Positions 1 through 51,623 of a DNA stretch of 51,623 bases are shown piece by piece. Under the pieces are notes generated by a model. It saw only the letters and a list, made by a program, of their open reading frames with translations, ran no database searches and had not been told where the DNA came from. Source of the DNA: a virus (taxonomy: Duplodnaviria; Caudoviricetes). Position 1 is the first letter of the stretch, and the number at the start of each line of letters is the position of its first letter. The DNA lies in the IMG/VR virus record IMGVR_UViG_3300030107_005790, positions 1 to 51,623 of that record; one strand, given 5' to 3'. A program made the position numbers and the translations under genes.

Positions 1-100
1 CTGTAGCAATATCCACCGTTATAAGTGTCCTCAACCAATCTTTCTATCTCTGATTGTTCAAGGTTGTTATCATTCCAATGCATCATTGCAGCCTTTACGA
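1..100. repeat. Terminal direct repeat, left copy (circularity overlap with 51524-51623)
   Basis: 1-100 matches 51524-51623 except position 99 (g) vs 51622 (a). The repeat lies inside a CDS whose reading frame continues across the junction. Confidence 0.97.
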
Positions 101-896
101 AATTACTAGGAAACCCATTTCGCCTGAAATGACTTATTATCCTCATAGCAGTATGATGCCTATTCCCTTCTTGAGGGCCTAAGTTAATCATTGATTGTAT
201 GCATGGAACTATATTAGAAGGCTCTGTTACTTTCTTTTCTGACCTAATACTAGGTATCTCAGTAACTATATGCTCTTCTAATTCCCCATCTCCAATCATT
301 TCTGTATAAGGAAATTCTAGCCTAGGAGTTTCTGCTAATTTTAGTATTTCATCTGGGCTGCTACTCATGATTTCTCTCATGGTAATTGGAATTTTGTACA
401 ATCCAGTTTTCTGATTCTTTGTATGTTGTACTCTGTATATACCTGTTCTCATATAGACGCTACTATCTATGCCTATATCTTGGAATAAATATTCCATGGT
501 ATACTTTACTACATATGGTAAATCATCAGAGGGACTGAAATTGAACACGCTATTTGGTAATACTAGGTGATATCCTGTACCGCTAAAGAAAGGCTGAATA
601 CTTTCTGAGTCTACTCCCAATTCTTCAAGATGCATAATAGCAGCCTGAGCTTTTTGTTGAGTAAACTCATTAGTATTCTTTTCTTTATCAATATCGATTA
701 GTATCTTATCAATAGCACGTTCGCCTATATACCTTTTTATGGTATTGTTTTCGTCTGCATACTTCTTAGCATCTTCATTGTATAAATACATTGACCTGTA
801 TAAAGGGTCTTTTGAATTTATATATTTTACTAAGTCGTTTTTAGCGATTAGGAGTCCACGATTAAATGGACTCCCTTGTGCTATTTCAACAAACAT
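1..896 (-). CDS. N-terminal part of an AEP primase-polymerase / PriL-CTD-like / SF4 helicase fusion (spans the window junction; about 589 aa with 50650-51523). Missing from the ORF track.
   Basis: Manual translation from ATG at 896 (TAATG overlap with the upstream gene): MFVEIAQGSPFNRG...ILIDIDKE...FFSGTGYHLV...IDSSVYMRTGIYRVQHTKNQKTGLYKIP...VPCIQSM...GNRHHTAMRI. AEP motifs DxD, SGxGxH and a third Asp are present. The frame is open and in frame with ORF 50650..51609 across the junction. Confidence 0.9.
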   Translation of the reverse strand, partial: MFVEIAQGSPFNRGLLIAKNDLVKYINSKDPLYRSMYLYNEDAKKYADENNTIKRYIGERAIDKILIDIDKEKNTNEFTQQKAQAAIMHLEELGVDSESIQPFFSGTGYHLVLPNSVFNFSPSDDLPYVVKYTMEYLFQDIGIDSSVYMRTGIYRVQHTKNQKTGLYKIPITMREIMSSSPDEILKLAETPRLEFPYTEMIGDGELEEHIVTEIPSIRSEKKVTEPSNIVPCIQSMINLGPQEGNRHHTAMRIISHFRRNGFPSNFVKAAMMHWNDNNLEQSEIERLVEDTYNGGYCY

Positions 897-1528
897 TATA
901 AGCTACTTAATCCAGCATCAGCTAGTTCTACCTCTTGATTTGGCGCAGCGGCAGATTCTTTATGCTCTTTAATGTAACCTTGAGACTTCATCCAATTAAC
1001 CTTGTCTTTCAACTTGGTCCTATTTTCAGCAGTGTCTAGGTAAATCTCTGGATAAATAGTAGTAAATACTTTGCCACTACCATTTTTGGATTTTTCTTTA
1101 TAAACATATGCTATATATTTATAATCCATATCTTCTCCAGGCATACCATTAAACCCACATTTATCGTTGAGGAATGATGCAATATCTTTAATGGGCTTTT
1201 CATCATAGGTTTCCCATTCGCCTTGCATGTTGATTCCTGCTTCACATTTGATTACACCGAAGAAATGGTTAATCTTATTTACTACTCTATTCTCTCCTGG
1301 AGTAGCAGTTAGATTGCCATTACCATCTTTGTCGAATCTTCCTGTGATTCTTAGGGTTTTATCATAATCACTTCCTTCTTGTCTAACAGTCACTGAAATA
1401 TAGACATCTGACCAATCATACTTTGAAGATAAATCATCAAAGTCTTTAATTGCTATTTTACAGATGCCATAGAACTTGCTGCCGTCTGAAGGAGATGGTG
1501 TTGTTGGTTTGTATAAAGCCATTTTCAC
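896..1528 (-). CDS. Probable single-stranded DNA-binding protein
   Basis: 210 aa, beta-rich, with a flexible C-terminal tail. It lies between the Sak4-like ATPase and the primase-helicase, the usual SSB position. Positional inference only. Confidence 0.5.
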   Translation of the reverse strand: MKMALYKPTTPSPSDGSKFYGICKIAIKDFDDLSSKYDWSDVYISVTVRQEGSDYDKTLRITGRFDKDGNGNLTATPGENRVVNKINHFFGVIKCEAGINMQGEWETYDEKPIKDIASFLNDKCGFNGMPGEDMDYKYIAYVYKEKSKNGSGKVFTTIYPEIYLDTAENRTKLKDKVNWMKSQGYIKEHKESAAAPNQEVELADAGLSSL

Positions 1529-2205
1529 TAGCCTCCTTTTATTGGTTTGTATATATTAGACCACTTAAAATCGACTTCTTCGCCTCTTAAATGTGGACAT
1601 CTACTTCCTGCCTCTATTGCTTCTCCTGATTTAAAAGATACTTTTAATGTTTCTTTTTCAGGGTCTCTAAATACATATCCAATAGCATCACAATCTGCCA
1701 TTATCATATTCTTTAGCTTTCCTGTTATATCTAGACTTTCAGGTTCTACAATAGCTTTCCCTTCTACTATTGCTCTAGCTGACTTTCTATGGCCAACTAG
1801 TATTAGACCTTCACAAATACTCTTAAAAGCCTTTATAGTGTTCATAACTTTATCACGAACTAGTGCGTAACCCTTACCGAAAGATAAATCGGCAAGGGCT
1901 TGCACATCATGTTCAGCGATAACTGCCTTTTCAGCCCAATCAACAATCTTGTCGATGGTATCTAAAGCAATATATCTAAAGTCATGTCCACCATTAGCTT
2001 TTTTGAGAACTTCGATTAGGTCGCCTCTGCTGTTAACCTCTACAATATGACCTTCTACCATATGAGAGCCCTTTTCAGTGTCTACAATAAGACACTTATC
2101 TAGTTTTGACAACATAGTTGTCTTTCCTACTTTTGGGGCTCCGTATAGCAGCAGGATTGCTGGGTTTACAGAGACTACTTTTCTCTTTTTGACTTCTAGT
2201 CTCAT
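1528..2205 (-). CDS. Sak4-like / AAA_24 P-loop ATPase (ssDNA annealing protein)
   Basis: LLYGAPKVGKTT Walker A, DTEKG, ALDTID Walker B, GKGY, ILVGH, DAIGY. SD GAGGAG upstream. Confidence 0.85.
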   Translation of the reverse strand: MRLEVKKRKVVSVNPAILLLYGAPKVGKTTMLSKLDKCLIVDTEKGSHMVEGHIVEVNSRGDLIEVLKKANGGHDFRYIALDTIDKIVDWAEKAVIAEHDVQALADLSFGKGYALVRDKVMNTIKAFKSICEGLILVGHRKSARAIVEGKAIVEPESLDITGKLKNMIMADCDAIGYVFRDPEKETLKVSFKSGEAIEAGSRCPHLRGEEVDFKWSNIYKPIKGG

Positions 2206-2875
2206 TTGTGACTCCTCTCTCGTTAAGCACTAGGTGTTGTTTTCTAAAAGACGATGGAGATAACGACTTCCAAATATACGAATAATAAGGCCTATGATGC
2301 AACACATTAAATGCTGCTGATAAGCCTAAACCTGATATTATCGAGGCTGTGAATATCGTATGTTTTTCAGTACAAGGTTCATCTGCAATGTCTATACTCG
2401 GCTTCCATGTATTGAAGAATATATCTTTTTGTTGGCTGCATGTTATAACTTCCATAGTTACAGCTCCCATTCTCATATCTATGAGGAATATTCTTTCATT
2501 CATATCTTTCCAAGCATTCCAAACAGCAAGACGAACCTCCATATTATCTGGAGCCATCATCACTTTGTCTGTTAAGGGTTTTTCTGGTGTCCATGGTTCA
2601 GTATGCTCAATAATTCTACATTTGCTATTGAAATACTTACCAACTTCTTTTGCTGCTGAAGTCTTAGACTTACCAAGGAACTTCTCTGGATACATTGTAG
2701 TGCTGAGATTATGTTCTTCTAAATCATCAAAATCCCATACATGTATCTTTTTAAAGCCCATAATTGCTGCGTTGATGACCAGAGACGAGCCGACTCCCCC
2801 TACGCCTATTATAGTCAACTCGTCTAGTTTGTTCTGGTCAATCATATCTTTATTTCTTAGATACCTATTTCTCAT
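2096..2875 (-). CDS. ThiF/MoeB/E1-like ubiquitin-like-protein activating enzyme
   Basis: N-terminal RYLR, IIGVGGVGS nucleotide-binding loop, WDFDDLEEHNL, GKSK, PDNMEVR, IDMRMG, and a candidate catalytic Cys in DEPCTEK (codon 2372-2374). No CxxC Zn pairs. Confidence 0.93.
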   Translation of the reverse strand: MRNRYLRNKDMIDQNKLDELTIIGVGGVGSSLVINAAIMGFKKIHVWDFDDLEEHNLSTTMYPEKFLGKSKTSAAKEVGKYFNSKCRIIEHTEPWTPEKPLTDKVMMAPDNMEVRLAVWNAWKDMNERIFLIDMRMGAVTMEVITCSQQKDIFFNTWKPSIDIADEPCTEKHTIFTASIISGLGLSAAFNVLHHRPYYSYIWKSLSPSSFRKQHLVLNERGVTNETRSQKEKSSLCKPSNPAAIRSPKSRKDNYVVKTR

Positions 2876-3705
2876 GATAACAGTCCAAAAGAATCATTCC
2901 AAGAGGCTATATCATCTGGCTCCTCTCCAAAAGTTTCTGTATATTTCTTAGAAACCTTATCGAATCTTTTCTTTATTTTGTTATATTTCTTTTTAGATAT
3001 CTTTCCATGCTCAAGATTAGCTTCAGCCTGAGTCATTTCTTTCTCTACAGCTTCATACTCTTCTTCTAGCCTATCTTCTTCTTTTAAGGCTTTATTATCT
3101 TCATAAAACCCACCCCAAAGAGTTCTTTGGCCTACTCCTGGCTTAGTACGACTGAGTCCATTGTAAAATACAGTTGGTGATTTCTTCCGTTTTTTATCCA
3201 TTTCATCAGCGTATTTAACCCATTCATCAAGAGGCTTGATTTTAGGAGATTTAACTTCAATATCTTTAGTTTCTACTAATTGAATTTGATTGAAGTTATC
3301 TAAATAGCTTATACCAAATGCAAACTTTGTTTTAGTATGAGCTACTACTAGACTGGGATATCCTACTTTATTGGCAGCTTCTTCAAGTTGCTGTTTATCT
3401 GTTCCACTAAAGTATGCTCCCATTCCATGGTGCGAATGAATTAATCCCATAAAGCATTTCTGGTAATCTGGATGCTTATCATATATTTCTTTTGATATTT
3501 CAACCCAATCTTCACCATCCCATTCAGTGCTTGTTGCGTCTCCCAGGTCAAGTGTTACGAAACCTCTGAGTGTCCATTCTGCAGGGAATCCATCATCATC
3601 GTACTTAACGCTATAAAATGCTGGTCCACTCCACTCAGTGTTTTTATAACGACCCAAGAGATAATTGATGTGTTTCTGGCTTTGCTGTGTTATTATTAAT
3701 TTCAT
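2872..3705 (-). CDS. JAB/MPN+ (JAMM) metallopeptidase, deubiquitinase-like
   Basis: Catalytic Glu in TEWSG and an exact HxH-x7-S-x2-D motif HSHHGMGAYFSGTD (3397-3438). Charged coiled-coil C-terminal tail. Confidence 0.9.
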   Translation of the reverse strand: MKLIITQQSQKHINYLLGRYKNTEWSGPAFYSVKYDDDGFPAEWTLRGFVTLDLGDATSTEWDGEDWVEISKEIYDKHPDYQKCFMGLIHSHHGMGAYFSGTDKQQLEEAANKVGYPSLVVAHTKTKFAFGISYLDNFNQIQLVETKDIEVKSPKIKPLDEWVKYADEMDKKRKKSPTVFYNGLSRTKPGVGQRTLWGGFYEDNKALKEEDRLEEEYEAVEKEMTQAEANLEHGKISKKKYNKIKKRFDKVSKKYTETFGEEPDDIASWNDSFGLLS

Positions 3706-5107
3706 TTAATACTTTTCTCCTTTCTCTTTCGAGGTATGCTAGTTTCTCTTTGTTTACTATTAGTTTTAACGATTCCAACTCTTCTTTCATATAATTAAAA
3801 CGCTCTACAGCTTCATCTAATAAGGTACTTGAAGATGGTATTGTTTTTTCTACTTCTTTCGTTATATCAAAAGAATAGCTGGTATCGTGTATTGATTCTT
3901 CTGCTCTAAGTATGAATACATCAGGATTTCCAATTAGCCACTTAATAGCAGCCATAGGAGGGGATGAATCATTATCGCCTGTTACATTACTTTGAATCCA
4001 ATTGTAATGAGGTGACAATTTTTTAAGTTCTTTTGAGTCAACCTTGAATCTCATATTCAAATAAAATGAGCCATTGTTATAAAGCATTTTATATGCAAGC
4101 TCTTTCATTTTCATAAAGTCAGGTATAACCTTTCCTAAATCAGCCCTAAGTGATTCTTTTGTGTTAAATTTCATCCACAAAGAATTGTATTCATTTTGTT
4201 TCTCTCTGTCATTCCAAGATGAATATGGATTTGCTACCCTAAACTTTTCTAATATCTCTAAAGTTTGTTCTATAGGCATTGTTGCTCCACCATCTTCATC
4301 TGGACTTATTAAGTTCCAAAATGCAAATGCATTATAGATATCTTTACTTGTTCTAAAACAGCTGACCCTATATCTTTCATTCATTATATTATGAAACTTT
4401 CTTTTCACTCTATAAGTCTTAAAAGTAATAGGCTTAAATGATTTGAATTTTTTAGCTTCTTCTTCATTTAAATCATCTACTATATAGTAATAAGCTTCTG
4501 GGTCTACAGTCAATTCATCTTCTCTTGCATCAAAGTATTTACCTCTGGTGTATACATCTCTACCATTGTATTCTTCGATATATTTACGAATTAACTTACA
4601 AGCACCATAGAAATTAGCAGACCATAAAGCATTGTCTATTGCTGTTTTATGACCACCAAAACATCCTTTACCTGCTTGAATATGTGGATGTTCTGCAGGT
4701 CTAAGACAATGTTCTCCATGTCTATCACATCCATCTTGATGGAAAGCAAGTTCCCATCCTCCATAAGGATTAAATTTCAATTCTGCTATATAATCTCCTG
4801 GATAGATGAATCTTCTACATTTAAATCTTGGATTGATGATTCTAATCCACAATGTAAGAGTATATGTTGTCTTTTTTATAACATCTCCATCTTTCTCATT
4901 CTTCATAGTATTAGAATGTGACTCAATTGAGTAAATGTTAAACAATTTCTTTTCATGCTGCACATTTACTTGAGATATCATCTTTTCTTGCATTTTCATA
5001 GCCTCTTTGTCTTTCAGAAGCTTATAAGTACTGCTATAAGGCAGTTCTAATGTCTCTATATTATGTATAATCTTATTTACATAACTGCTAAAGCTTATTA
5101 ATCGCAT
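3644..5107 (-). CDS. Putative prokaryotic E2 (UBC-like) conjugating enzyme with a long C-terminal extension
   Basis: HPHIQAGKGCFG (4661-4690) resembles the E2 HPN(I)...G.IC active-site motif, after predicted beta strands and before a helix. It sits between the Ubl and JAB genes. Start probably 5107 (GGAG SD) rather than 5119. Confidence 0.68.
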   Translation of the reverse strand: MRLISFSSYVNKIIHNIETLELPYSSTYKLLKDKEAMKMQEKMISQVNVQHEKKLFNIYSIESHSNTMKNEKDGDVIKKTTYTLTLWIRIINPRFKCRRFIYPGDYIAELKFNPYGGWELAFHQDGCDRHGEHCLRPAEHPHIQAGKGCFGGHKTAIDNALWSANFYGACKLIRKYIEEYNGRDVYTRGKYFDAREDELTVDPEAYYYIVDDLNEEEAKKFKSFKPITFKTYRVKRKFHNIMNERYRVSCFRTSKDIYNAFAFWNLISPDEDGGATMPIEQTLEILEKFRVANPYSSWNDREKQNEYNSLWMKFNTKESLRADLGKVIPDFMKMKELAYKMLYNNGSFYLNMRFKVDSKELKKLSPHYNWIQSNVTGDNDSSPPMAAIKWLIGNPDVFILRAEESIHDTSYSFDITKEVEKTIPSSSTLLDEAVERFNYMKEELESLKLIVNKEKLAYLERERRKVLNEINNNTAKPETHQLSLGSL

Positions 5108-5122
5108 TTTTCTCTCCATTTT

Positions 5123-5182
5123 AGCAAGCAGGGCAAGATAAGGAGCTCGAATGAATAAAACGAGAAACTTACCCTGCCTGCT
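5123..5182 (-). promoter_or_regulatory. Intergenic RNA stem-loop between the Ubl and E2 genes
   Basis: Minus-strand arms AGCAGGCAGGGTAAG / CTTGCCCTGCTTGCT form 15 bp with two G-U pairs, plus an inner CTCG/CGAG stem. Confidence 0.75.
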
Positions 5183-5197
5183 TAGGTTAACCTATCA

Positions 5198-5446
5198 CTA
5201 TTTACCAGATTTGTTACTTTTCTTGTGAACTTGCAAGTAATCATCAGGCTGAAGAACTGTATTAACAGTTACTCTGTCTCTTGCTTCTCCATTGCCTGTT
5301 GTTATTTCAAGAAATACATCAGTTGGTGAGATGTTATCTTCTTGAAGTACATCACCTACAGTCATGCCTGACTTTAAATCTTTAGATTGAAGTCTATTGC
5401 CTGTCATAAATGATGATAGTTTGTATGTAAGATTGCTATTTGCCAT
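5198..5446 (-). CDS. Ubiquitin-like (beta-grasp, ThiS/MoaD-like) protein ending ...KSNKSGK
   Basis: 82 aa with beta-grasp hallmarks GMTVGDVL (start of helix) and VLQPDDYLQV (last strand), then a flexible tail with a penultimate Gly. First gene of the E2-JAB-E1 cluster. Followed by three in-frame stops TAG TGA TAG. Confidence 0.8.
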   Translation of the reverse strand: MANSNLTYKLSSFMTGNRLQSKDLKSGMTVGDVLQEDNISPTDVFLEITTGNGEARDRVTVNTVLQPDDYLQVHKKSNKSGK

Positions 5447-5826: not shown

Positions 5827-6504
5827 TTAAGACTTAGCTTTTTTAGGCAACCTTAAGCTACCTGGGGCAACATATAGAGCTTTTAATTTCTTTCTCTTCT
5901 CTATGCAGCCAATAAGCTGTCTTTTTGGAATGAAGTTGTACATTGCATGCTTTGTCTTCATAATACTTTCGACATTTAGCATATAATATGCAAATTTCTT
6001 CATTTGAACTTGAGTACTTTGACCAGTATAATCTCTATACATTTTCATTACTGTATGAATACTTGCTGGTGAAGTGTTTCTTTCTATTAATAGTCTAAAA
6101 AGACCCCAAGCTGCTTTCTTTCCAAGCCAAGTTTCTAAAGGCTTTATATAAAGATTTAGATACTTTTCTGGAATAGAAGCTTTGTTCATGTAACGCCATA
6201 GATACTGAGCTCCATTCATTCTAAGTGTATGTTCATTTGTTGCTAAAAAGAATGAATCTGTTGTTTTTTGCTCAATCTGATGCTGTATTACATTGACTTT
6301 CTTCCAATTTAATTCAAGGATACATCTGAATCTTCTATGTCCATTGATTATTACATTGTTTTTATCGATTGTTAAAGGCTCAATAAGACCTCTTTCTTTT
6401 ATATCTTCCCTCAAGCCGTCAATAGAACGATTAGCCACTGTTCTTGATGGTGGATTGTATATTGATGGATTAATTGAAGATACTTTTATCTCTTTTAGCT
6501 TCAT
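5827..6504 (-). CDS. ParB/Sulfiredoxin N-terminal domain protein
   Basis: YNPPSR...LREDIKERGLIEPLTID...IINGHRRF, carrying the ParB/Srx GxxR box. SD AAGGAG. Confidence 0.85.
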   Translation of the reverse strand: MKLKEIKVSSINPSIYNPPSRTVANRSIDGLREDIKERGLIEPLTIDKNNVIINGHRRFRCILELNWKKVNVIQHQIEQKTTDSFFLATNEHTLRMNGAQYLWRYMNKASIPEKYLNLYIKPLETWLGKKAAWGLFRLLIERNTSPASIHTVMKMYRDYTGQSTQVQMKKFAYYMLNVESIMKTKHAMYNFIPKRQLIGCIEKRKKLKALYVAPGSLRLPKKAKS

Positions 6505-8080: not shown

Positions 8081-8221
8081 CTAGGGGTTTGTGTTGTAAT
8101 ATATCGCATACAACTGTTTCTTTTTCATCTTCTTGAATCTACTAGCTTCCATAGGCCACTTACAAATAGCCCATTCAAGTAGCTGATATCTATGCTTATA
8201 AGGACATATAGCTCTATTCAT
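8081..8221 (-). CDS. Small hypothetical protein (46 aa, not in ORF track)
   Basis: MNRAICPYKHRYQLLEWAICKWP...QLYAIYYNTNP. ATGA overlap with the upstream ORF. Confidence 0.55.
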   Translation of the reverse strand: MNRAICPYKHRYQLLEWAICKWPMEASRFKKMKKKQLYAIYYNTNP

Positions 8222-21022: not shown

Positions 21023-23353
21023 ATGGCAGATTTAGAAGGAAAAACAATAGCGAGTACGTATAAGAGTCTTTTAAATGTATCAGGCTCAGATAATGCTGTA
21101 TTACCTACAGGCTCTGTAGTGGCAATTGCAGATGGAACAGGCGTTAATTCAGCTTTATCATTAGGGACAGACAGAGCTACTATAGCTCTTGGCTCGGACT
21201 CTGGTGATGACTTTATAGTAGGTGGGACTAAACTGGTAGTGAGAGGCAATAATGGCTTTGTTGGAATAGGAACTTCTAGCCCAGATAGATTACTTCAAGT
21301 AGAAGCTAGTGGGTCTGCTGCTACAGCAATTTTATCCATAGCTACGCCAAATGATGGAGCGTCAAGAATAGAATTTTCAGAGGTAACTGGTCCAGACCTT
21401 GATGGTGGAAAAATTGAATATAGGCATGCAGCACATGCTACTACTGCTGATAGGGATAAAATGATGTTTCAAACAGCAGATTCTATAAAAATGGTTATAG
21501 GCTCTGCTGGAAATGTTGGTATAGGAACTACAGCTCCTGAAAATCTTTTATCTCTTTATTCTACTGGAAGCACTGCTTTAGAGATAAGAAGCGGGGCAAC
21601 AACAGATGCCCAAGACCCTCATTTGCTTTTTAGAAAAAGCGCAGGAGAAGGGGTGTCCGATTTAACTCTTGTTGGTGAAGATGACCATCTTGGAACAATA
21701 AGATTTGATGGGGCAGATGGTAATGAGTTTATTCAGTCTGCTGGAATAGAAGGTAGGATTGATGTAGATGGTAACACACCTGCTAATAATGTAATGCCAG
21801 GTAAATTATTATTTAATACAAATAATAATGGCGCTGGAGTTACTACTAAGATGGTAATAAAGTATGATGGGAAAGTTGGTATAGGAACTACATCTCCAGC
21901 ATCTTTATTGCATTTGTATGACACAGATGGCGGAGACCCTGACCTGACTATAGAGCATGTAGGTGCAGCGGACCAGGAAGGTGGAAATATTGTTTTTCAA
22001 CAAAGAGAAAGTAGTGGTTATATAAACGATGGGAAATCTATTGGTCAAATTATATTCCAATCTTATGACAATGATAGTGGGAGTGGTACCTATAGGTCTT
22101 CTGCAAAGATTAGGGCAACTGCTACGCATGGGCAAGAAGAAGACAAATTAAGCGCAAATCTGTCTTTTTGGGTTAACAACCACTCTCAAAATCCATTTCA
22201 AGCAATGACAATACAATACGATGGCAACGTTGGTATAGGAAGTACAAGTCCAAATGCTAAACTGCATATTGAAAATACCACTGAAGATGAAAAACCCCAA
22301 ATATATATAGTTAATAAATCTACTACAGCCGCACATGATGGTGGAGAGATAAGATTTTATAGAGAAGACCCTTCAGCTCATCTTGTTACGGATGGTTTAT
22401 CTTTGGGTGATATAAAATTTCTAGGTAAAGATGCCTCTGGTACTTCAATAATTGGAGGCTTAATTAGAGGTTATGTAGATGGAACTGATGCAACTACAAA
22501 TGACCTCCCTAGCGGATTGAAGTTTATGACTAATCCTGGAGGGACAAGTGTTAGCACTAGAATGACAATCGACAAGAGTGGCAACGTTGGTATAGGAACT
22601 ACAAGTCCATTGGCAAATCTACATGTATCTGGTGCTAGTATATCAGATACAAATCCAATGATGATGATAGAATGCACAGATGCAGATGCTGCTACTGGGC
22701 CTGATATCGCTTTATATAGAAATAGTACAAGTCCAGCTGATGATGACTATCTTGGAGCTCTTACTTTTATAGGAAGGAATGATGCTACAGGTGAGGCAGC
22801 TCATAATGTTGATTATTGCGATATATATGGAAGAATTAAAGATATGACCAATGGAACTGAAGATGCTACTCTTTATTTTAGAACTGTAGTTAATGGAACG
22901 CAAACTGATACTATGATGTTAAATGGTGGAAATGTTGGAATAGGAACTGCAGAACCAGGACAAGATTTAGATGTAGCAGGTATAGCTCAAGTAAACTCTA
23001 TAAATTGTGATACAAAAGTAGACATAGCTAATGGTACATTTACAAATACAAGTGTTGCTGGAGTTAGTATGTTAAGATGTGATACAAGTAGTGGACATTG
23101 CTACATTAAAGGGTTAGATGGAGGCGTGGAAGGACAAATGCTATATGTAGTGAAAACTTCTAGTGCTAATACATTGGTAATGTATAACAACTCAACAGAT
23201 GCTGCAAGTGGTGATAAATTGCTTTTAGCAGGATGTATTGCTGACGATAATTCTGATTATATCACAGTACCAGCAGGGTATGGCGGCTTTATATTTATAT
23301 ATCAAGGAAGCTATTGGAGGAATGTATCACACACAGGAGAAGTAACAGCTTAA
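21023..23353 (+). CDS. Tail fibre / spike with GxVGIGT repeats
   Basis: Six GxVGIG(T/S)xxP repeats spaced roughly 80-120 aa apart. Confidence 0.8.
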   Translation: MADLEGKTIASTYKSLLNVSGSDNAVLPTGSVVAIADGTGVNSALSLGTDRATIALGSDSGDDFIVGGTKLVVRGNNGFVGIGTSSPDRLLQVEASGSAATAILSIATPNDGASRIEFSEVTGPDLDGGKIEYRHAAHATTADRDKMMFQTADSIKMVIGSAGNVGIGTTAPENLLSLYSTGSTALEIRSGATTDAQDPHLLFRKSAGEGVSDLTLVGEDDHLGTIRFDGADGNEFIQSAGIEGRIDVDGNTPANNVMPGKLLFNTNNNGAGVTTKMVIKYDGKVGIGTTSPASLLHLYDTDGGDPDLTIEHVGAADQEGGNIVFQQRESSGYINDGKSIGQIIFQSYDNDSGSGTYRSSAKIRATATHGQEEDKLSANLSFWVNNHSQNPFQAMTIQYDGNVGIGSTSPNAKLHIENTTEDEKPQIYIVNKSTTAAHDGGEIRFYREDPSAHLVTDGLSLGDIKFLGKDASGTSIIGGLIRGYVDGTDATTNDLPSGLKFMTNPGGTSVSTRMTIDKSGNVGIGTTSPLANLHVSGASISDTNPMMMIECTDADAATGPDIALYRNSTSPADDDYLGALTFIGRNDATGEAAHNVDYCDIYGRIKDMTNGTEDATLYFRTVVNGTQTDTMMLNGGNVGIGTAEPGQDLDVAGIAQVNSINCDTKVDIANGTFTNTSVAGVSMLRCDTSSGHCYIKGLDGGVEGQMLYVVKTSSANTLVMYNNSTDAASGDKLLLAGCIADDNSDYITVPAGYGGFIFIYQGSYWRNVSHTGEVTA

Positions 23354-27523: not shown

Positions 27524-27796
27524 ATGGGCGCAATAGGATATGAACAAAGGAAAGCAGCAAAAAAGGCAAAAAAGCTTGCCAAGCAAAAAGCTCACCAAGC
27601 TTCTGTTCAAAAAAAAGAAAGTGATTTTAAGGAAAGGATTGCTAGAGGTACAAATATAAAAGGGCAACATAATGCTAATCTAATTCGTAATAAAAGATAT
27701 AAAAAGGCGGGAGTTGAATTTACCTCTGGGAATCAAAATAGGACGGTTGCTCCAGAACAATATGGTGGTCCGTACAAGAAAAAGAAAAAGTATTAG
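27524..27796 (+). CDS. Small basic protein
   Basis: 90 aa, Lys-rich. SD GGAG. Confidence 0.7.
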   Translation: MGAIGYEQRKAAKKAKKLAKQKAHQASVQKKESDFKERIARGTNIKGQHNANLIRNKRYKKAGVEFTSGNQNRTVAPEQYGGPYKKKKKY

Positions 27797-28335
27797 TGGA
27801 TTACCTTATAACAGGATTACCTAGAAGTAGAACTGCATGGTTAGCTAACTATTTAACAGTAGGAAGCTCATTTTGCTATCATGAAGGCCTTAAAAACTGC
27901 TTTGACATAGGAGACCTTAGAATGATGAAAAAAGCTCCTTATACGGGCAATTCTGATAGTTCAGCAGTATTCTTCGTAGATGAGATGAAAAACCTATTTC
28001 CACATATGAAGATAGTTATAATAGATAGAAACTACCAAGATGTGCTAAATAGCCTTAAAGATGAATACTCTGGCCCTTATACTAACTACTTAGTATCAGC
28101 AACAAAAACTTCAAAGAAATATGTAGAAAAGAACTATGACCATATGCTAGTAAAGTATAAAGATATAAATGATAGGTTAGATGAAATAGCAGCATACTGC
28201 ATTCCTGACCAAGAAATTACAGAGGAAAGAAAGAATATGCTACTTGATTTAAAAGTAGAAGTATCAAAGGACTCCTACGAGAACGTAGGTATGCTGGTAA
28301 GAAATAAAATAAAGGAATTATTAGCTTATGCCTAA
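27796..28335 (+). CDS. Sulfotransferase-like P-loop protein
   Basis: ITGLPRSRTAWLANYL (5'-PSB-like loop), CYHE, KIVIIDR...DVLNSL (3'-PB-like). Confidence 0.7.
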   Translation: MDYLITGLPRSRTAWLANYLTVGSSFCYHEGLKNCFDIGDLRMMKKAPYTGNSDSSAVFFVDEMKNLFPHMKIVIIDRNYQDVLNSLKDEYSGPYTNYLVSATKTSKKYVEKNYDHMLVKYKDINDRLDEIAAYCIPDQEITEERKNMLLDLKVEVSKDSYENVGMLVRNKIKELLAYA

Positions 28336-31300
28336 AGAGTTATTAGAAATAAAGAATTTTACACTTGGAATACAAACTACTCCATCAGAGGCTGATATTA
28401 ACCATGAAGCTGCATCTTACTCTTTAAATGTAGACCCTATAGCACAAGATGGTAAATTGCAAGCTATTCCTGATGATGAAACTAAAGATGTAGATTGGGC
28501 TGATGCTACTGGCAATCAAGCTGAAATGATGAGAGTAATAGAGGTAGATGGTGTTAAATCTATTATAACATATACAAGTGATGGAAAAATTAGATATTCC
28601 TACAATTTAACCACAGGGACAACAGATGGAACTGCAACTGCTTTAGCAGATGTTACAGGAACAACTAGTGCTGGAACTATTACTGCTAATTTACAAAATG
28701 GCGATAATATTGATATGGAGGTTAATAATCAAGAAGCTCATATAGGTTTTGGGACTTCTACTAATCCTTATTGGGCTGGAAAAATAGGACATGAACAATT
28801 TAGCGTAGCACACTCAGCTACAAATGGACTTTATGCTACTGAAGCTGAATTAAAGCCACCAAGTGAATTTAGAGGTTGCTATAAGTTAGTTTTTGCAAAA
28901 GTAGATACAACAGGGAATGGAACAGCTGATACAGTATATATTTATGGAATAGATTGGAAAGGAAATAGAGTTTATAAATTTAAAGAAGCAACTGCAGGCC
29001 AAAGCTATACATTTGAAGGGGCATCAACTACAAGGTTTACTTCTACTCAAGGAATATGCCAAAGATATGTAGGTGGAAGCAATGGTAGTGGCGCAAATGA
29101 AACTGCAGAATCTGCTGTATTATGGATTTACGATGCGGGTATAGGAGCGCAAGGAAGTTTAGTTGCATATGACCCTGTAGAAGATGCAATTAAAAAAACA
29201 TTCACTATTGGCAATACTAATATAGCAGATAAGACTGATAGTAGTTTTACAGATACTGTATCAGATATCTTAGAAACAGAATTTGCTAATAAGGTTAGAC
29301 ATGTTTTCTTTTCAAAAAGATACGATAATGAATATCCAGTAGCATTTAAAGATTATTATAGTGGTAATTCAGGGGATTTAGATGCTAGTTATGGCACAGA
29401 TAATGGTGTAGGAATTATATATTCTACCTCGGAAGCCTCTTTTGATGAAACAACATCAAGTGGAGATAAAACATCGACAATGGTTACCTTGACTAATAGA
29501 ACTCCTAAAATAATGGCTACAGATAAAACTAGTGCCCTTGTTCATCAAACATTAGCTCCTTATTTATCTGAATATGAATGGATGGTTCATAGCAGCTTTG
29601 GAGATAGCTCTTACACAGCAGGTAATCAATACTTAGGAGGGCTTGCTCCTTTTACGGGAACAAGAATAAAAGATAAAAGAGGAAACTCTTTTACACCTAA
29701 AAGTGTAAGTAATAACGGCTATTCAGGGGAAGGAGCTAGTTATAAAATAGCAAGTGCAACTGGAGATATTTCTAGCACAGCATATGCAAATTGCAATTTT
29801 CTTAATGCGGCTATTGGGCATATAGACTGGCTGAATGATGGTAGTCAAACAGTTCATTATAAGTATCAAAATAGCTGTAGTGTAGATGATAATAATGGGA
29901 CTAAATATTTAGCAGGCGTGCAAACTCATAATATTGCTATAGATTCTACAAATAAAGTTGTATTTGCTAGCACAAGAAGTGCTTCTCATAGAGCTGCTAA
30001 ATATAGTGCAATAATAGGATTTTTATACTCAACAACCAATTCAAAAGATTGTCCTAAAGGAACTGCGAGCGTTCCTATTACTATTGCTACGCCAGAGGTA
30101 GCCACTTTAGATTCATCATCAGGTGGTGCTAGCTATCCAGACAGTGCAAATCAATCATATGGCCCTATAGCCCTTGATACTGTTAATAAATTATTATTTA
30201 CAGGAGTTGGTAATCAAGATGACCATACAGGCAGTTCTGGAGAGTTACTATGGTCTTATTCATATACTGGAGCCCAATTAACTTCAAGGAAAGATGCATT
30301 TTTAAAAACTGAGCATTCTACTTCTGGTACATATACAGGAGAACCTCATCAATTAATAGTAGATGAAGAAAGGCAAATACTTATTTCGATTACAAACTCT
30401 AATATGGCTGCCACTGCTGGTACTCATGCGACTAAATGGGATGGTGTTTATGCTAATATTGCTTTTATTAGCTATACTAGTGCAGGTATTTTTACAAAAA
30501 TTGAAGATTGGGCTTTAACAGGAGCTTATATAGTAGCAGCAGATTACGATTCAACAACAATGGAGTTAGCATTTAATACAGTAGTAGGCTATACACATCC
30601 AAGCAATGCAGATGCAGCTGAAGGGGCTAATGTTTATGTTATGGGTATGAATTGGTCAGGAAGTATTGGTAGTTGGACTTTTGCTGAGACATGGAGCGTG
30701 AAGAATTATGCCTCGGGAAATACAGGTGACTATATTCCTATGGATATAAAAATTGATGGAACAAATGGACTTGTTCATGTTAATAGTAAGTATGCAGGCA
30801 CATCTGAATTTGATAATACCGATGGCCTTTCTAATGCAAAAGCTAATGGTGGTGCGGTTTTTGATGCAGGATATATCGGTGGAGACCACGATGAGCCTGA
30901 CCCAACCAATTCTACCACACTATCAGGATTGACTATTGCGCTTGGTAATACTTTAATCCCTAGCTCTGGTACAACTTCAATACCTACAGCTAATTTGTTA
31001 GGAAGGCCTGTAAGTGGCCTTGGAATACCTCATGGTACTTTTATAACTGAATCTGTGACAACTAGTAGCACTAATACTACTAGTTTTAGAATTAGTCAAG
31101 CACCTACTGCAAATACAGTTACAGTTACAGGGACTATATATTCAGCAATGGTTACTGGTACGGATGATAAATTTGTACGCTCTTCGGGTAGTTTTACTTC
31201 TGCAGGATTTGAAGCAGGAATGCTAATCAACGTTTCTGGGTTCACAGATGCCGCTAATAATGGCAACCATAGAATAAGTTCAGTAACATCTACTGAACTT

Positions 31301-34300
31301 TTTGTAACATCATCTGGAAGCACTTTAGTAAATGAGGCAGCTGGAGACACAGTTACAATAACTGCTGGTGAAATTAATGTTTATCCAAATGTAGGTTATG
31401 TAGCTAGTTCCGGTGTAGGCTCAAGACAGACAACTAAAGGCGGAGCATCTGTTGTTCATACTTATAAATTAGCAGATGGCCAATTAACTGAAACAGATGA
31501 TAAATATTGCTATGATGCTCAAAATTCTCCTCAAGAATGCCATGGGCAGATGACAATAACAGGTGATGGAAAATATATGTTTATGGGTGGAACTCCTGGA
31601 ACTAAATCTATTAGATTTGTTAAAAGAAATGTTACTAACAAAACTTCAGGAGAGTCTATATTTACTCATAGTATGAATTTTTTACAAAGAATTAATAGCA
31701 ATGAAGGAGCTGGTGTTCATTCTGGTATGTATATGGGGAAAGTAGTTTTAGATGAAAATTTAGGTTATTGCTTTGCCATGAATGTAGATGAAAATACTTT
31801 AGATGTATTCCAATATTTTACAGATGACGACTGCAAGATTACAACTCCATTAGCAAATTTAATAACTGTTAATGATGGTACTGCAAATAGAAGGGTAGCA
31901 TTTGCTTATAAATTCAATCATCCTTCAGGTGTTCAATTTAATGTAGACAATGCTTTAGATATGGGCAAATGGTTTCTTCATTGTGTAGATGACAATGCAG
32001 GTGGAAATGGAGTGGCTGATGAAGATGGAACTACTGCCTTTCCTTCACCATCCTCAGTTGCGGTTACAGGAACTACATATGCAGCAGTTAGCTCTAATAG
32101 AACTATCACATCAACTGCAAATAATTTTATTGCGGCAGGTTTTACGGCAGGGATGAATATTAGAGTATTAGGGTTCTCAGAAGCTGCTAATAATACTACT
32201 CATAAAATTGCATCAGTAGTTGCTGGTACGATTACATTGACAGGTGGTTCTAGTTTGACCGATGATGCTGCTGGTGATTCAGTTACAATAGAAGAATGCA
32301 GTAAAGGGCGAGTATTTAGATTTGAATATACACATAATGTTACAGATTACTTGTTTAATGCTAATATTTATGGATTATTTAATATTAGCAATAATATTGG
32401 CGATTTAATGGCTAGAGATACTTTAAAGCAATGGGGGTATACATTTGAAAAAAGTTCAACTGAAACTTATATACACGTAACAAACCATCATGATGCCATT
32501 GGATACGATATGGGGAATGATGCATATAGCGAAGGAATAACATATAATTTACTTGATTTATACAATGGTAATGTATTAAGTCGTGGAGAAGGCTCTGTTA
32601 ATATACCTAAAGCTATTTTAGCATATAGAACTGACTTGTCTGGAACAGCTGTTATGGCTGATGATACGCACTCATATTGGATGGGAATTGGAATGGATGT
32701 TCCGTTGACAGTTTCTTTTAAAAGAGTAGATAATGCCGACCACAACCCTATAGATGGAGGTAACTGGGAAGTTACTTTAGCAGAAGACGCAAATGCAATT
32801 TATCAAGGACCACAAGGAGGTTTTTATATTGATAATATAAAAGTAAAATCTTCAGGTGGAACCCTTAAGAAAGACTATAAATACTTTTATAAAGCTTCTG
32901 CTGTTTATGATGGGTATCAAGAAGGGCCTTTAGGTGACAACTTTGAGGTAATTACTACCGTAGATGAAGATTCTAATATTATCAACGAGAATACAGTTAG
33001 AATTAATTTAGATGTTAATATTGATAATCTTCCTAACTTAAATAAAAGATTATCAGGAATTAAAATATACAGAGCTGAAAATTCTGATACTTTATCAGAA
33101 ACTCCTGAAGGATTTTACAGGCTTATTAAGGAGCTTTCTTTAAAAACTAATCTTTTTGCACTTGGAACAATTTCTGGTACACTCCCATCTATGGAAAACA
33201 AAAGGTTTGCACCTCTTGAAGATACAGGGGCATCTTTTCAAAACTATGAAGCAAATACAGGTATAAATGAAGTTATTGACAGCTTTAATGTTAAGTATAA
33301 ATGCAGCACTCAACTTAATAATACTCATTTTATAGGTAATTTAGCATCGGATTTAGATAATAGTTTGTTAGGTTCTAATTATATAGCTAAATCAAAACCT
33401 TATAATTTTAATCAATATGACCTTTTACAGGATATTTTACAAGTTCCTGGGACTGTAGTGGCAATGGCATCATTTGCTGGCCGTATATTTGCTTTTTCTG
33501 AAACTAAAGTATTTAAAATAGAGCCTAATAATTTATTCATAGAGGATACATGGGAAAATATAGGGACTTTCAATCAAAAGTCAGTTCATGCGTCAGAGCT
33601 TGGAATGTGCTGGTGTGATAAAAATAATATATACCTTTGGGATGGAAGACAAGTTAGAACAATAGGTGATACTATATTAAAAGGTGATAGCACTAATTCA
33701 TGGCAAGAAGGTAGTTTAGTTTATGATGGAGCAACCGATAGTGCTGCATCCAAGGAGCCTCAAGTATTCTGGGACCCAGAAAGAAAAGCATTTTTAATTA
33801 TGTTTACTAGCGATACTGACCATAGAAAGATATGGGTTTATAGCGTTACAAAAAATAGATGGGACTTGTGGGATATGGGAGACGGAGCTCAAGTACAATC
33901 TTTTACACATGGGCCATCAGGAGAAGTATTTTATGTAAAATATGGAAGTAGGAATTTATTTTGGTTAAATGGTCATGCTACTACTAGAAAACCTCTATCT
34001 TGGCATTCTAAGAAGCTTACCATGGGAATGGATACTCAGATTAAGTTATTTAAAAAAGTAAGAATAACAGGCTTTGATGGAGTAGATGAAAATGTTCTTA
34101 ATTCAGATGTAAATGTTAGTTTTTTAACAGCAGCAGGTAATCCTGAAGATGGTGATGGATTTTCTAATGATACTACGCAGTCAGTATATACCTTATCTAC
34201 AAGTGCCGCTAAATCAGAATGGCTAAAGGTTAAAATAGATGCAGCAGAGAATGATAATCTACAAATAGATTCTATTGGAGTAATTTATAGAAGGAGACCA

Positions 34301-34309
34301 ATTAGATAA
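28328..34309 (+). CDS. Large tail protein (nozzle/stabilisation-protein-like beta-propeller termini with a very large insertion)
   Basis: 1993 aa. N-terminus IKNFTLGI...NVDP..DGKL. C-terminal propeller-like part (NIGTFNQKSV, IYLWDG, WHSKKLTMG...KLFKKVRI, IDSIGVIYRR) resembles podoviral nozzle proteins. Confidence 0.7.
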   Translation: MPKELLEIKNFTLGIQTTPSEADINHEAASYSLNVDPIAQDGKLQAIPDDETKDVDWADATGNQAEMMRVIEVDGVKSIITYTSDGKIRYSYNLTTGTTDGTATALADVTGTTSAGTITANLQNGDNIDMEVNNQEAHIGFGTSTNPYWAGKIGHEQFSVAHSATNGLYATEAELKPPSEFRGCYKLVFAKVDTTGNGTADTVYIYGIDWKGNRVYKFKEATAGQSYTFEGASTTRFTSTQGICQRYVGGSNGSGANETAESAVLWIYDAGIGAQGSLVAYDPVEDAIKKTFTIGNTNIADKTDSSFTDTVSDILETEFANKVRHVFFSKRYDNEYPVAFKDYYSGNSGDLDASYGTDNGVGIIYSTSEASFDETTSSGDKTSTMVTLTNRTPKIMATDKTSALVHQTLAPYLSEYEWMVHSSFGDSSYTAGNQYLGGLAPFTGTRIKDKRGNSFTPKSVSNNGYSGEGASYKIASATGDISSTAYANCNFLNAAIGHIDWLNDGSQTVHYKYQNSCSVDDNNGTKYLAGVQTHNIAIDSTNKVVFASTRSASHRAAKYSAIIGFLYSTTNSKDCPKGTASVPITIATPEVATLDSSSGGASYPDSANQSYGPIALDTVNKLLFTGVGNQDDHTGSSGELLWSYSYTGAQLTSRKDAFLKTEHSTSGTYTGEPHQLIVDEERQILISITNSNMAATAGTHATKWDGVYANIAFISYTSAGIFTKIEDWALTGAYIVAADYDSTTMELAFNTVVGYTHPSNADAAEGANVYVMGMNWSGSIGSWTFAETWSVKNYASGNTGDYIPMDIKIDGTNGLVHVNSKYAGTSEFDNTDGLSNAKANGGAVFDAGYIGGDHDEPDPTNSTTLSGLTIALGNTLIPSSGTTSIPTANLLGRPVSGLGIPHGTFITESVTTSSTNTTSFRISQAPTANTVTVTGTIYSAMVTGTDDKFVRSSGSFTSAGFEAGMLINVSGFTDAANNGNHRISSVTSTELFVTSSGSTLVNEAAGDTVTITAGEINVYPNVGYVASSGVGSRQTTKGGASVVHTYKLADGQLTETDDKYCYDAQNSPQECHGQMTITGDGKYMFMGGTPGTKSIRFVKRNVTNKTSGESIFTHSMNFLQRINSNEGAGVHSGMYMGKVVLDENLGYCFAMNVDENTLDVFQYFTDDDCKITTPLANLITVNDGTANRRVAFAYKFNHPSGVQFNVDNALDMGKWFLHCVDDNAGGNGVADEDGTTAFPSPSSVAVTGTTYAAVSSNRTITSTANNFIAAGFTAGMNIRVLGFSEAANNTTHKIASVVAGTITLTGGSSLTDDAAGDSVTIEECSKGRVFRFEYTHNVTDYLFNANIYGLFNISNNIGDLMARDTLKQWGYTFEKSSTETYIHVTNHHDAIGYDMGNDAYSEGITYNLLDLYNGNVLSRGEGSVNIPKAILAYRTDLSGTAVMADDTHSYWMGIGMDVPLTVSFKRVDNADHNPIDGGNWEVTLAEDANAIYQGPQGGFYIDNIKVKSSGGTLKKDYKYFYKASAVYDGYQEGPLGDNFEVITTVDEDSNIINENTVRINLDVNIDNLPNLNKRLSGIKIYRAENSDTLSETPEGFYRLIKELSLKTNLFALGTISGTLPSMENKRFAPLEDTGASFQNYEANTGINEVIDSFNVKYKCSTQLNNTHFIGNLASDLDNSLLGSNYIAKSKPYNFNQYDLLQDILQVPGTVVAMASFAGRIFAFSETKVFKIEPNNLFIEDTWENIGTFNQKSVHASELGMCWCDKNNIYLWDGRQVRTIGDTILKGDSTNSWQEGSLVYDGATDSAASKEPQVFWDPERKAFLIMFTSDTDHRKIWVYSVTKNRWDLWDMGDGAQVQSFTHGPSGEVFYVKYGSRNLFWLNGHATTRKPLSWHSKKLTMGMDTQIKLFKKVRITGFDGVDENVLNSDVNVSFLTAAGNPEDGDGFSNDTTQSVYTLSTSAAKSEWLKVKIDAAENDNLQIDSIGVIYRRRPIR

Positions 34310-50452: not shown

Positions 50453-50653
50453 CTACGCCTTTGTTAATGGTGTTGTTTGCTTGTAGCCTTTTTTGCTTCT
50501 AAGAGCAAAGCCTATTGTAAACTCTAGCATAAATAATCCTATACTTAAAGACCAATAAGTCCCTACTCTTCTTTTCGCTCTATTTCCTTGTATGTAGAAT
50601 CTTCTAAATAAAGTTATAGAAAATCCATCTCCAAGGTTGAAGTATTCTATCAT
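50453..50653 (-). CDS. Small hypothetical protein
   Basis: ATGA overlap with the helicase stop. SD AGGAG. Confidence 0.6.
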   Translation of the reverse strand: MIEYFNLGDGFSITLFRRFYIQGNRAKRRVGTYWSLSIGLFMLEFTIGFALRSKKGYKQTTPLTKA

Positions 50654-51523: not shown

Positions 51524-51623
51524 CTGTAGCAATATCCACCGTTATAAGTGTCCTCAACCAATCTTTCTATCTCTGATTGTTCAAGGTTGTTATCATTCCA
51601 ATGCATCATTGCAGCCTTTACAA
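51524..51623. repeat. Terminal direct repeat, right copy
   Basis: Copy of 1-100 with one mismatch. Confidence 0.97.

Follow-up and report, generated by a model that had tools for sequence, protein, structure and literature searches.

A predicted ubiquitin-like conjugation and deconjugation cascade in the replication operon of an uncultured phage and its relatives

Introduction

Conjugation of ubiquitin-like proteins (Ubls) has so far been established in bacteria as a form of host immunity, in Bil and in the type II cyclic oligonucleotide-based antiphage signaling system (CBASS), and passages of two reports describe such host conjugation systems as anti-phage (10.1101/2023.09.04.556158; PMC10097602). 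Bil is composed of the Ubl BilA, the conjugating (E2) protein BilB, the JAB deubiquitinase BilC and the activating (E1) enzyme BilD, and according to part of another report its JAB-type deubiquitinase trims the Ubl to expose the C-terminal glycine and removes conjugates (10.1101/2023.09.26.559546). Five types of bacterial operon with E1, E2 and JAB genes are set out in passages of Iyer, Burroughs and Aravind 2006, where phages are mentioned only for the TAPI/TAPK Ubl-JAB pair of tail assembly. In our literature searches, we found no paper describing a phage-encoded cascade of E1, E2, JAB and Ubl. In this study, we analyzed the complete IMG/VR virus record IMGVR_UViG_3300030107_005790, a stretch of 51,623 nucleotides (nt; hereafter the window) from an uncultured, marine-type phage with a genome of ~51.5 kb, and investigated four adjacent genes predicted to encode a Ubl, an E2-like protein, a JAB peptidase and an E1. 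We consider it likely that they form a Ubl conjugation and deconjugation cascade run by the phage and expressed within its early replication operon.

Results

The four genes are co-oriented on the minus strand (5446-2096) in the order Ubl-E2-JAB-E1. A gap of 78 nt separates the Ubl gene from the E2-like gene, and the overlaps further along measure 62 nt between the E2-like and JAB genes, 4 nt between the JAB and E1 genes and 110 nt between the E1 gene and the following Sak4 gene. The original prediction, which was made from the sequence of the window, had described four adjacent co-oriented genes with the last three overlapping. We verified these open reading frames (ORFs) and their overlaps at minus-strand coordinates, and the E2-like, JAMM and E1 motifs that the prediction quoted each translate exactly where expected.

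A pattern scan of IMG/VR with the alignment of the E2-like protein yielded 25 related loci, several of them near-duplicates, and the E2-like, JAB and E1 genes were adjacent and co-oriented in all of them. The Ubl gene lay directly upstream of the E2-like gene in each of the 19 related loci with DNA at that position. Downstream of E1, Sak4 followed in all 24 loci reaching past E1, a gene for a protein of 210 amino acids (aa) in 21 and the primase-helicase gene in 20, and every absence fell at the end of a locus; the upstream genes were variable small ORFs. Because the gene order was kept in 25 of 25 IMG/VR loci, the arrangement is far beyond chance, and a survey of viral contigs for conserved synteny, which had been proposed together with the original prediction, bore it out.

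The second gene (3644..5119, minus strand) encodes the E2-like protein of 491 aa, in which a UBC (ubiquitin-conjugating)-like N-domain (residues ~10-243) is followed by a C-terminal helical domain (~250-475) and a disordered tail. Its true start is probably Met5, because six of eight close homologues begin at the residue aligned to Met5. Apart from these eight, we found 14 distant homologues of similar length that share only the core. The protein matched no family in Pfam, NCBIfam, PHROG or PADLOC. It carries the E2 active-site-like motif HPHIQAGKGC (H144-C153; 4661..4690, minus strand, translation verified), and in an alignment of 38 E2-like sequences, reaching down to ~15% identity, Gly108, His144, Pro145, His146 and Cys153 were the only invariant columns.

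We then modeled the E2-like protein with AlphaFold from the 38 sequences (predicted local distance difference test, pLDDT, 84.3; predicted template modeling score, pTM, 0.76). The model runs from N-terminal helices through a beta-meander (60-141), the HPH...C loop (144-153) and helices from residue 157 to the helical domain and the disordered tail, so that the loop stands after a strand (137-141) and before a helix (157-166). E2 enzymes carry their HPN...Cys motif between such a strand and helix and, judged from the order of secondary-structure elements in the model, the HPH...C loop appears to be placed as this E2 loop.

An exhaustive structural alignment of the model with 48,161 PDB representatives listed 50 rows. 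Among the matches listed, all 12 rows for the N-domain were ubiquitin-conjugating enzymes (Z 5.7-6.6, 121-151 residues aligned), with chains mostly 150-210 residues long and two longer fusion constructs. The best matches were UbcH10 (5a31_Q, Z 6.6, root-mean-square deviation 3.9, 125 residues aligned) and 1yrv_A (Z 6.5, 135 aligned), and the others included Ube2K, Pex4, E2S, UBE2E1, UbcH5c, UBE2F, Ubc3, UbcH7 and UbcH5B; the remaining 38 of the 50 rows were generic helical matches to the C-terminal domain. A second look at the top 990 chains from Foldseek gave seven rows for the N-domain (residues ~6-243), all of the UBC superfamily: three E2 enzymes (UbcA1, Rad6 and UbcH5c), two UEV rows (TSG101, Z 5.3 and 4.8) and two Spc24-Spc25 rows (Z 5.1 and 5.0). 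Whether the 491-aa protein has a UBC fold had been set beforehand as a refutation test, and its N-domain matched only E2, UEV or RWD proteins. These results support a UBC-like fold for the modeled N-domain, the argument being the exclusivity of the structural matches and not their Z-scores. In the ESM Atlas, the nearest named cluster of the E2-like domain carries Prok-E2_D in 11% of its mostly viral members (score 0.90), which we take as a lead only.

The UEV and RWD proteins among the structural matches could also suit a different explanation, in which the 491-aa protein serves as a UEV/RWD-like adaptor that has a UBC fold without catalytic activity, and the E1, Ubl and JAB act without an E2. 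Direct E1-mediated transfer is known from archaeal SAMPylation, and no E2 model of Pfam matched the 491-aa family. UEV and RWD domains are described in passages of Iyer et al. 2006 as lacking the catalytic cysteine, yet Cys153 and the preceding HPH are invariant in all 38 sequences, and we regard an adaptor as highly improbable.

The first gene (5198..5446, minus strand) encodes the Ubl precursor candidate of 82 aa, which ends in SNKSGK (NKSG at 5204-5215, K82 at 5201-5203). In an alignment of 18 sequences, N78, S80 and G81 were invariant (N-[KR]-S-G) and were preceded by a strand-like G-D-T-[IV]-x-I segment, and the tail after Gly81 varied over 1-3 residues (K, N, I, R, V, IVA, FVA or IVS). 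By analogy, an invariant glycine with a variable tail suggests a precursor that is trimmed to expose the glycine. Because this variable tail follows the invariant Gly81, a pre-processing of the phage Ubl similar to that in Bil is suggested.

The original prediction had taken the 82-aa protein to be of beta-grasp type, and this found only partial support. An AlphaFold2 model from five sequences showed the element order b-b-a-b-b, which fits a beta-grasp, and relatives scanned singly matched Ub-Mut7C (7 of 18, best 2.7e-4), the G5-linked Ubl domain DUF348 (4 of 18) and ThiS (3 of 18); the fold searches singled out no beta-grasp. A search of PDB sequences with the Ubl family profile found nothing below E 0.4, and the ESM Atlas gave a ThiS-bearing cluster as a lead.

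The third gene (2872..3705, minus strand) encodes a JAB/JAMM metallopeptidase of 277 aa, which matched Pfam Prok-JAB (PF14464) at 6.7e-6 and 26.4 bits against a cut-off of 25. Its JAMM motif HSHHGMGAYFSGTD (3397-3438, minus strand) and Glu24 (codon 3634-3636) make up an intact E...HxH-x7-S-x2-D zinc site. Residues E24, H90, S91, H92, S100, T102 and D103 were invariant in 21 sequences, including those of the cultured phages FpV4 and Kehishuvirus described below, and on the strength of these residues we predict that the protein trims the Ubl precursor and also undoes conjugation. The JAB family profile had no match among PDB sequences at E<=0.01.

The fourth gene (2096..2875, minus strand) encodes an E1-like adenylating enzyme of the ThiF family (259 aa; Pfam ThiF, PF00899, 1e-16, 61.3 bits with a cut-off of 28.1). 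Its minimal adenylation domain (~1-215) is followed by a C-terminal extension of low complexity that overlaps Sak4, and its motifs GVGGVG (2789-2806), DFDDLEEHNL (2705-2734) and DEPCTEK (2363-2383) were verified by translation on the minus strand. Across 20 E1 sequences, R7, G24, G26, G27, D48, D50, E53, N56, K71, D110, N111, R115, D133, R135, D165, C168, K171 and T173 were invariant. Cys168 is the crossover-loop cysteine in D-E-P-C-T-x-K, and the 20 sequences again include FpV4 and Kehishuvirus. The catalytic cysteines of both enzymes, Cys153 of the E2-like protein and Cys168 of the E1, are therefore kept in homologues, as the original prediction had anticipated. With the E1 family profile, the Rossmann region matched 9egb (an unnamed ThiF-type protein, 2.7e-10), UBA3 (1.2e-8), UBA6 (2.3e-8), SAE2 (7e-8), MoeB (5.7e-7), ThiF (6e-5) and Cap2 (2e-4) in the PDB, E-values whose differences are too small to assign the protein to the conjugating or to the sulfur-carrier E1s. 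A literature search for PDB 9EGB, the best structure match, found nothing relevant. The C-terminal extension of the E1 (2096-2230) is basic, of low complexity and ~45 residues long, and it overlaps the start of Sak4 by the 110 nt given above; it is present in window-like and L010-like relatives and absent from the L005-like group.

From the conserved catalytic residues and the genomic context, we infer every chemical step of the cascade and its targets. The JAB would trim the 82-aa precursor after Gly81, and the E1 would adenylate Gly81 with ATP and take the Ubl onto Cys168. The Ubl would then be handed to Cys153 of the E2-like protein, in the HPH...C loop on its UBC fold. The C-terminal helical domain of the E2-like protein may pick the targets, with the Ubl transferred without a separate E3, and the JAB may reverse the mark as well. 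These findings support the original prediction that the phage brings its own protein-tagging pathway, with conjugation itself as a predicted activity.

Several results weigh against a conjugation cascade. Concerning the E2-like protein, none of the 38 family members matched an E2 family of Pfam (UQ_con, Prok-E2_A to E) at E<=10, a Foldseek search of its model against the PDB gave nothing at E<=0.001, and its Z-scores in the exhaustive alignment were middling (5.7-6.6), with a tool that scores single domains of long models low. Concerning the Ubl, the window's own 82-aa protein matched no family, and TrkA_N, which is not a beta-grasp, was matched by 6 of the 18 relatives. The AlphaFold2 model of the 82-aa protein was weak (pLDDT 66.7), and with this model Foldseek found nothing in the PDB at E<=0.001. 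A VIA wide search reached a best Z of 4.2 with no distinctive fold; two of its rows, which we take to be beta-grasp (Get5 UBL and Grb7 RA), scored Z 3.4 and were tied with unrelated folds. Finally, the best curated matches of the E1 were ThiF sulfur-carrier enzymes, all of them far below their cut-offs.

The matches of the E1 bear on a sulfur-carrier explanation, in which the small protein, once adenylated by the E1, is converted to a thiocarboxylate and passes sulfur on to a nucleotide, a DNA base or a cofactor for phage replication. The best NCBIfam matches of the E1 are indeed ThiF/MoeB adenylyltransferases (PRK08644, 4.5e-13, 49 bits against a cut-off of 159), the 3 of 18 Ubl relatives that matched ThiS point in the same direction, and the location in a replication module would fit a DNA-modification pathway. 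JAMM peptidases that trim or recycle carriers are known (CysO/Mec+ and QbsE/QbsD), and in such a pathway the JAB would only trim the carrier and the 491-aa protein would be a sulfur-relay or scaffold protein instead of an E2, an assignment that we find as unlikely as the pathway itself. In family scans of the 51.5-kb genome, sulfur-pathway families such as rhodanese, cysteine desulfurase, PP-loop thiolase, ThiG/ThiH and MoaE had no match, nor had those of thiamine, molybdopterin or tRNA thiolation, for which the original prediction had likewise reported no recognizable genes. In addition, the partner has a UBC-like fold and an invariant HPH...C, which are lacking in sulfur-carrier pathways, and a passage of 10.1101/2023.09.26.559546 states that ThiF/MoeB pathways encode no E2-like protein. 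We therefore consider a sulfur-carrier pathway very unlikely, and a conjugation cascade remains the preferred explanation.

We next assessed how far the module is spread. The E1 family comprised 266 clusters at E<=1e-5; the best 120 of these 266 were all at least 51% identical to the window E1, came from ENA, JGI, NCBI and Tara sources and lay on contigs of up to ~56 kb. The named E1 clusters among the matches listed were labeled 'molybdopterin/thiamine biosynthesis adenylyltransferase'. Among 50,697 phage records, neither blastn of the region nor tblastn of the E2-like protein found a match. The window E1 matched 62 phage records at 25-30% identity, namely Flavobacterium psychrophilum phages and crAss-like Bacteroides phages.

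Two of these cultured phages, FpV4 (KT876724.1) and Kehishuvirus 'tikkala' (OQ198717.1), have the same gene layout beside toprim/primase genes, with the ThiF gene last. Like the window, they encode a Ubl-bearing protein, a protein of 420-428 aa with GYMHSH...C, a JAB and a ThiF, and the middle genes overlap. Their JAB and E1 are homologous to those of the window (1e-12 to 1e-16). In their first gene, the initial 85-90 residues end in K-S-G and a long extension follows; in contrast to the window, the Ubl domain is thus fused to a C-terminal extension of ~135-200 residues, and the genomes measure 88-101 kb. An hhalign comparison of the window's E2-like and Ubl families with the proteins at the corresponding positions was not significant (E 0.037 and 0.23). 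GenBank labels the genes of the cultured phages 'thiamine biosynthesis protein', 'metalloprotease' and 'hypothetical'. A BFVD match to the E2-like protein (A0A1B0WLX5, 420 aa, E 4.4e-3) equals the FpV4 protein in length, its identity with that protein being unconfirmed.

The conserved neighbors of the module belong to DNA replication. The Sak4-like AAA_24 ATPase gene (1528..2205, minus strand) matched Pfam AAA_24 at 1.1e-23 and PHROG 124, 'Sak4-like ssDNA annealing protein', at 5.6e-27. The two ends of the window each carry one half of the primase-helicase gene: its N-terminal half (3..896, minus strand) matched PriCT_1 and a PHROG primase, its C-terminal half (50650-51621) matched DnaB_C at 2.2e-16 on 50650-51609, and joining the ends through a 98-nt repeat gave a continuous frame of 590 aa. 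Between Sak4 and the primase-helicase lies the gene of the conserved 210-aa protein (896..1528, minus strand). The original prediction had labeled this product a single-stranded DNA-binding protein (SSB), and the label found no backing: the protein had no match in Pfam, NCBIfam or PHROG, and its family profile had no PDB match below E 0.5.

Family scans of the genome found no DNA polymerase gene, and a search with a dnaN model gave no match there, whereas 10 of 14 control genomes did contain a match to this model. Because the module is fixed in the replication operon of a phage without a polymerase or clamp gene, replication-fork proteins of the host or the phage are the most likely targets. 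The original prediction had offered three roles, namely tagging or inactivation of host proteins, countering of host Ubl-based defense and regulation of the phage's own replisome, and the strict linkage to replication genes favors the replisome-related one.

The second of these roles was weighed separately. Here the cascade would mainly neutralize host Ubl immunity (Bil, or Cap2/Cap3 of type II CBASS) through stripping, mis-tagging or a decoy Ubl. The anti-phage action of host conjugation systems, described in passages of 10.1101/2023.09.04.556158 and PMC10097602, speaks for such a role, and the Rossmann region of the E1 weakly resembles the CBASS E1-E2 models of PADLOC (best 1.3e-7) and BilD; among the PADLOC Bil models, only BilD was matched, by the E1 (E 0.0014, 15.4 bits). 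However, the Ubl, E2-like protein and JAB matched no Bil or CBASS model of PADLOC. Counter-defense genes are usually variable accessories, whereas in all 25 loci this module occupies one fixed place, with early genes on one side and Sak4/primase on the other, and its distant versions adjoin primase genes in FpV4 and Kehishuvirus. Moreover, stripping needs only a peptidase, yet the E1, E2-like protein and Ubl are all intact. A cascade directed mainly at host defense is accordingly improbable, and action on the replication machinery is preferred.

Within this replisome-directed scheme, the E2-like protein and the JAB may both dock on the host beta sliding clamp via Q-x-x-L-[FW]-type peptides, a possibility that we hold to be tentative and rather doubtful. 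The Ubl mark would then be written and erased on the clamp or on clamp-bound replisome proteins, leading to takeover of the host polymerase. A passage of PMC4549789 gives the bacterial clamp-binding consensus as Q-L-x-L-F, usually C-terminal. A clamp-motif-like QRTLW peptide lies in the JAB linker (3115..3129, minus strand), where no gene overlaps, and Q..L[FW] was found at the aligned position of this indel-rich linker in 17 of 19 window-family JABs; of the other two, L003 has QGNLGL and L004 has none. The C-terminal tail of the E2-like protein carries a second such peptide, QLSLGSL (3647..3667, minus strand; pLDDT <50 at 483-491), and a tail motif (QxxLF, QLx[LF]xxPhi or QxxxLxL) stands within the last 15 residues of 37 of the 38 members, in variants such as QLSLGSL, QLSF.. 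and Q.[ST]LF. The two peptides can be identical within one phage, as with QATLF in the E2-like protein and JAB of the related locus L005. Among the 55 ORFs of the window (16,156 aa), the pattern occurred only in the JAB, in the E2-like tail and at two sites inside giant structural ORFs, and these two stray sites are about what a rough composition estimate expects by chance.

The bases of the E2-like tail also encode, in the other frame, the conserved JAB motif [IVL]-x-Y-[LF]-L (I-N-Y-L-L in the window), which counts against the clamp proposal. In the E2-like frame, the tyrosine codon of the JAB leaves room only for an aliphatic codon and the JAB codon after it only for F, L, S or P, and the JAB motif persists in Kehishuvirus outside any overlap. 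Because of this dual coding, conservation of the E2-like tail does not count as separate evidence for a docking peptide. The JAB linker peptide, which is free of overlap, is the less ambiguous lead. An equally possible docking site for the shared peptide is the minimal E1, which lacks any additional domain for recruiting an E2.

We also made three observations on these regions. In each window-family locus checked (L001-L026; 3644-3705 in the window), the E2-like gene shares 62-113 nt with the JAB gene, and the E2-like stop codon always falls ~0-8 codons past the JAB [IVL]-x-Y-[LF]-L, with two conserved peptides on the same bases in two frames. The linker of the Kehishuvirus JAB (OQ198717.1, 4187-5422) contains QGELPF, a Q-x-x-L-x-F pattern like that of hexapeptide clamp-binding motifs. 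The proteins at the E2 position of FpV4 and Kehishuvirus end in QNQVPL and QTGYI.

The remaining features of the window concern the genome at large. A 98-nt exact direct repeat stands at both ends of the record (1-98 and 51524-51621), which IMG/VR classes as linear; from this terminal repeat we conclude that the genome is circularly permuted and ~51.5 kb long. The plus-strand genes (~9,500-47,350) include terminase, a P22-like portal, an SU10-like capsid protein and adaptor, tail fibers and two giant proteins, and the early and replication arm is made up of all other genes of the window, on the minus strand. The giant ORFs of this structural arm (28328-34309, 1,993 aa; 37601-47347, 3,248 aa) together take up ~30% of the genome and had no PHROG or Pfam match. 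A repeat occurs four times at a spacing of ~357 nt (21478-22624) within the 776-aa tail-fiber gene (21023-23353), its core encoding ...GNVGIGTT.P...., and a 179-aa ORF of the structural arm (27796-28335) had weak, below-cut-off sulfotransferase matches (Sulfotransfer_3, 5.6e-5) and a match to PHROG 'hydrolase'.

Upstream of the module by 380 nt in the window, a gene for a protein with a ParB N-terminal domain (5827..6504, minus strand) matched Pfam ParB_N at 2.1e-9. No counterpart was present among the upstream ORFs of 14 related loci (E<=1e-3), and the conserved module does not include this gene. Among the upstream genes of the window, a 46-aa early ORF (8081-8221) alone has counterparts in related loci (five loci, E 2e-10 to 6e-7). 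Between two small early ORFs, the minus strand carries a terminator-like hairpin (7606-7563) in which a T-run follows a 20-bp stem. No other strong hairpin of this kind was found upstream of the module, and this one may mark where a long replication transcript begins. Promoter-like sites were in no excess in the window (35 against 36.5 in shuffled sequence), and neither an Rfam family nor a tRNA gene was found in it. The original prediction had also called the phage apparently lytic; this was not confirmed, the label resting solely on the fact that family scans of the genome found no integrase. Terminase and primase have only distant cultured relatives, and our guess that the host belongs to Bacteroidota goes back only to the two cultured counterparts.

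Discussion

Bacterial Ubl conjugation is established on the side of the host, and here a complete cascade with intact catalytic motifs is predicted on the side of the virus, in phages whose replication operon keeps it firmly in place. With 266 E1 clusters from the ocean and other metagenomes, the family is large, and its distant versions in cultured Flavobacterium phages and crAss-like Bacteroides phages make the question testable. If the targets are replisome components, the cascade would represent a new viral route to the control of bacterial DNA replication and would bear on the origin of ubiquitin-type signaling at sliding clamps. If docking on the clamp is true, it would be a bacterial-virus counterpart of PCNA ubiquitination and would suggest what purpose is served by the E1/E2/JAB/Ubl cassettes found in phages, crAss-like gut phages among them, and in plasmids, which have long lacked an explanation.

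The likeness to the eukaryotic ubiquitination and SUMOylation of PCNA, whose components include Rad6-Rad18 and USP1, is a functional analogy only: if the peptides bind the clamp, they would bring both an E2 and a deconjugating peptidase to it. Homology is limited to the UBC fold, and the phage module, in contrast, has no RING E3.

With ThiF-ThiS and MoeB-MoaD, the phage shares a ThiF-family adenylating enzyme and a small protein with a C-terminal glycine. The E1, however, reached only 49 bits against the cut-off of 159, and the phage has an E2-like partner and no sulfur-pathway genes in the scans described above. Type II CBASS resembles the module in the chemistry of its E1, E2 and JAB (Cap2, an E2-E1 fusion, and Cap3, a JAB), with E-values of 1.3e-7 at best for the E1-E2 models of PADLOC and 2e-4 for Cap2 in the PDB, but the similarity is confined to the nucleotide-binding region, and the phage module has no CD-NTase or E2-E1 fusion and encodes a separate small Ubl. 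In passages of Iyer 2006, the E2-like proteins of type 6d are described as having no classical histidine ahead of the cysteine and relying on one further downstream, whereas the phage E2-like family keeps an invariant HPH before its cysteine.

The ParB-related, ThiF-related cassette (PRTRC) is likewise borne by mobile elements and contains a Ubl, an E2-like protein, a JAB and a ThiF-type E1, and a ParB_N gene lies near the module in the window. The PRTRC models (NCBIfam TIGR03734-03742) gave no match at E<=0.01 for the nine window proteins scanned. In the cultured counterparts, the E1s weakly matched PRTRC_ThiF (5e-10 and 4.5e-7) and the JABs PRTRC_A (0.03-0.05), all below the cut-offs. PRTRC differs in that ParB is not conserved in the phage relatives, and counterparts of the PRTRC proteins E and F were not found.

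Bil is similar to the module in having four separate proteins with the same four activities, which in the phage are predicted. It differs in that the phage system sits in a phage replication operon and not in a host defense locus, that the phage E2-like protein has 491 aa with an extra helical domain of ~230 residues, and that the phage E1 is a minimal adenylation domain of ~215 residues. With E2-like and Ubl families that are absent from Pfam, NCBIfam, PHROGs and PADLOC, the module is a widespread phage version of a known type of system.

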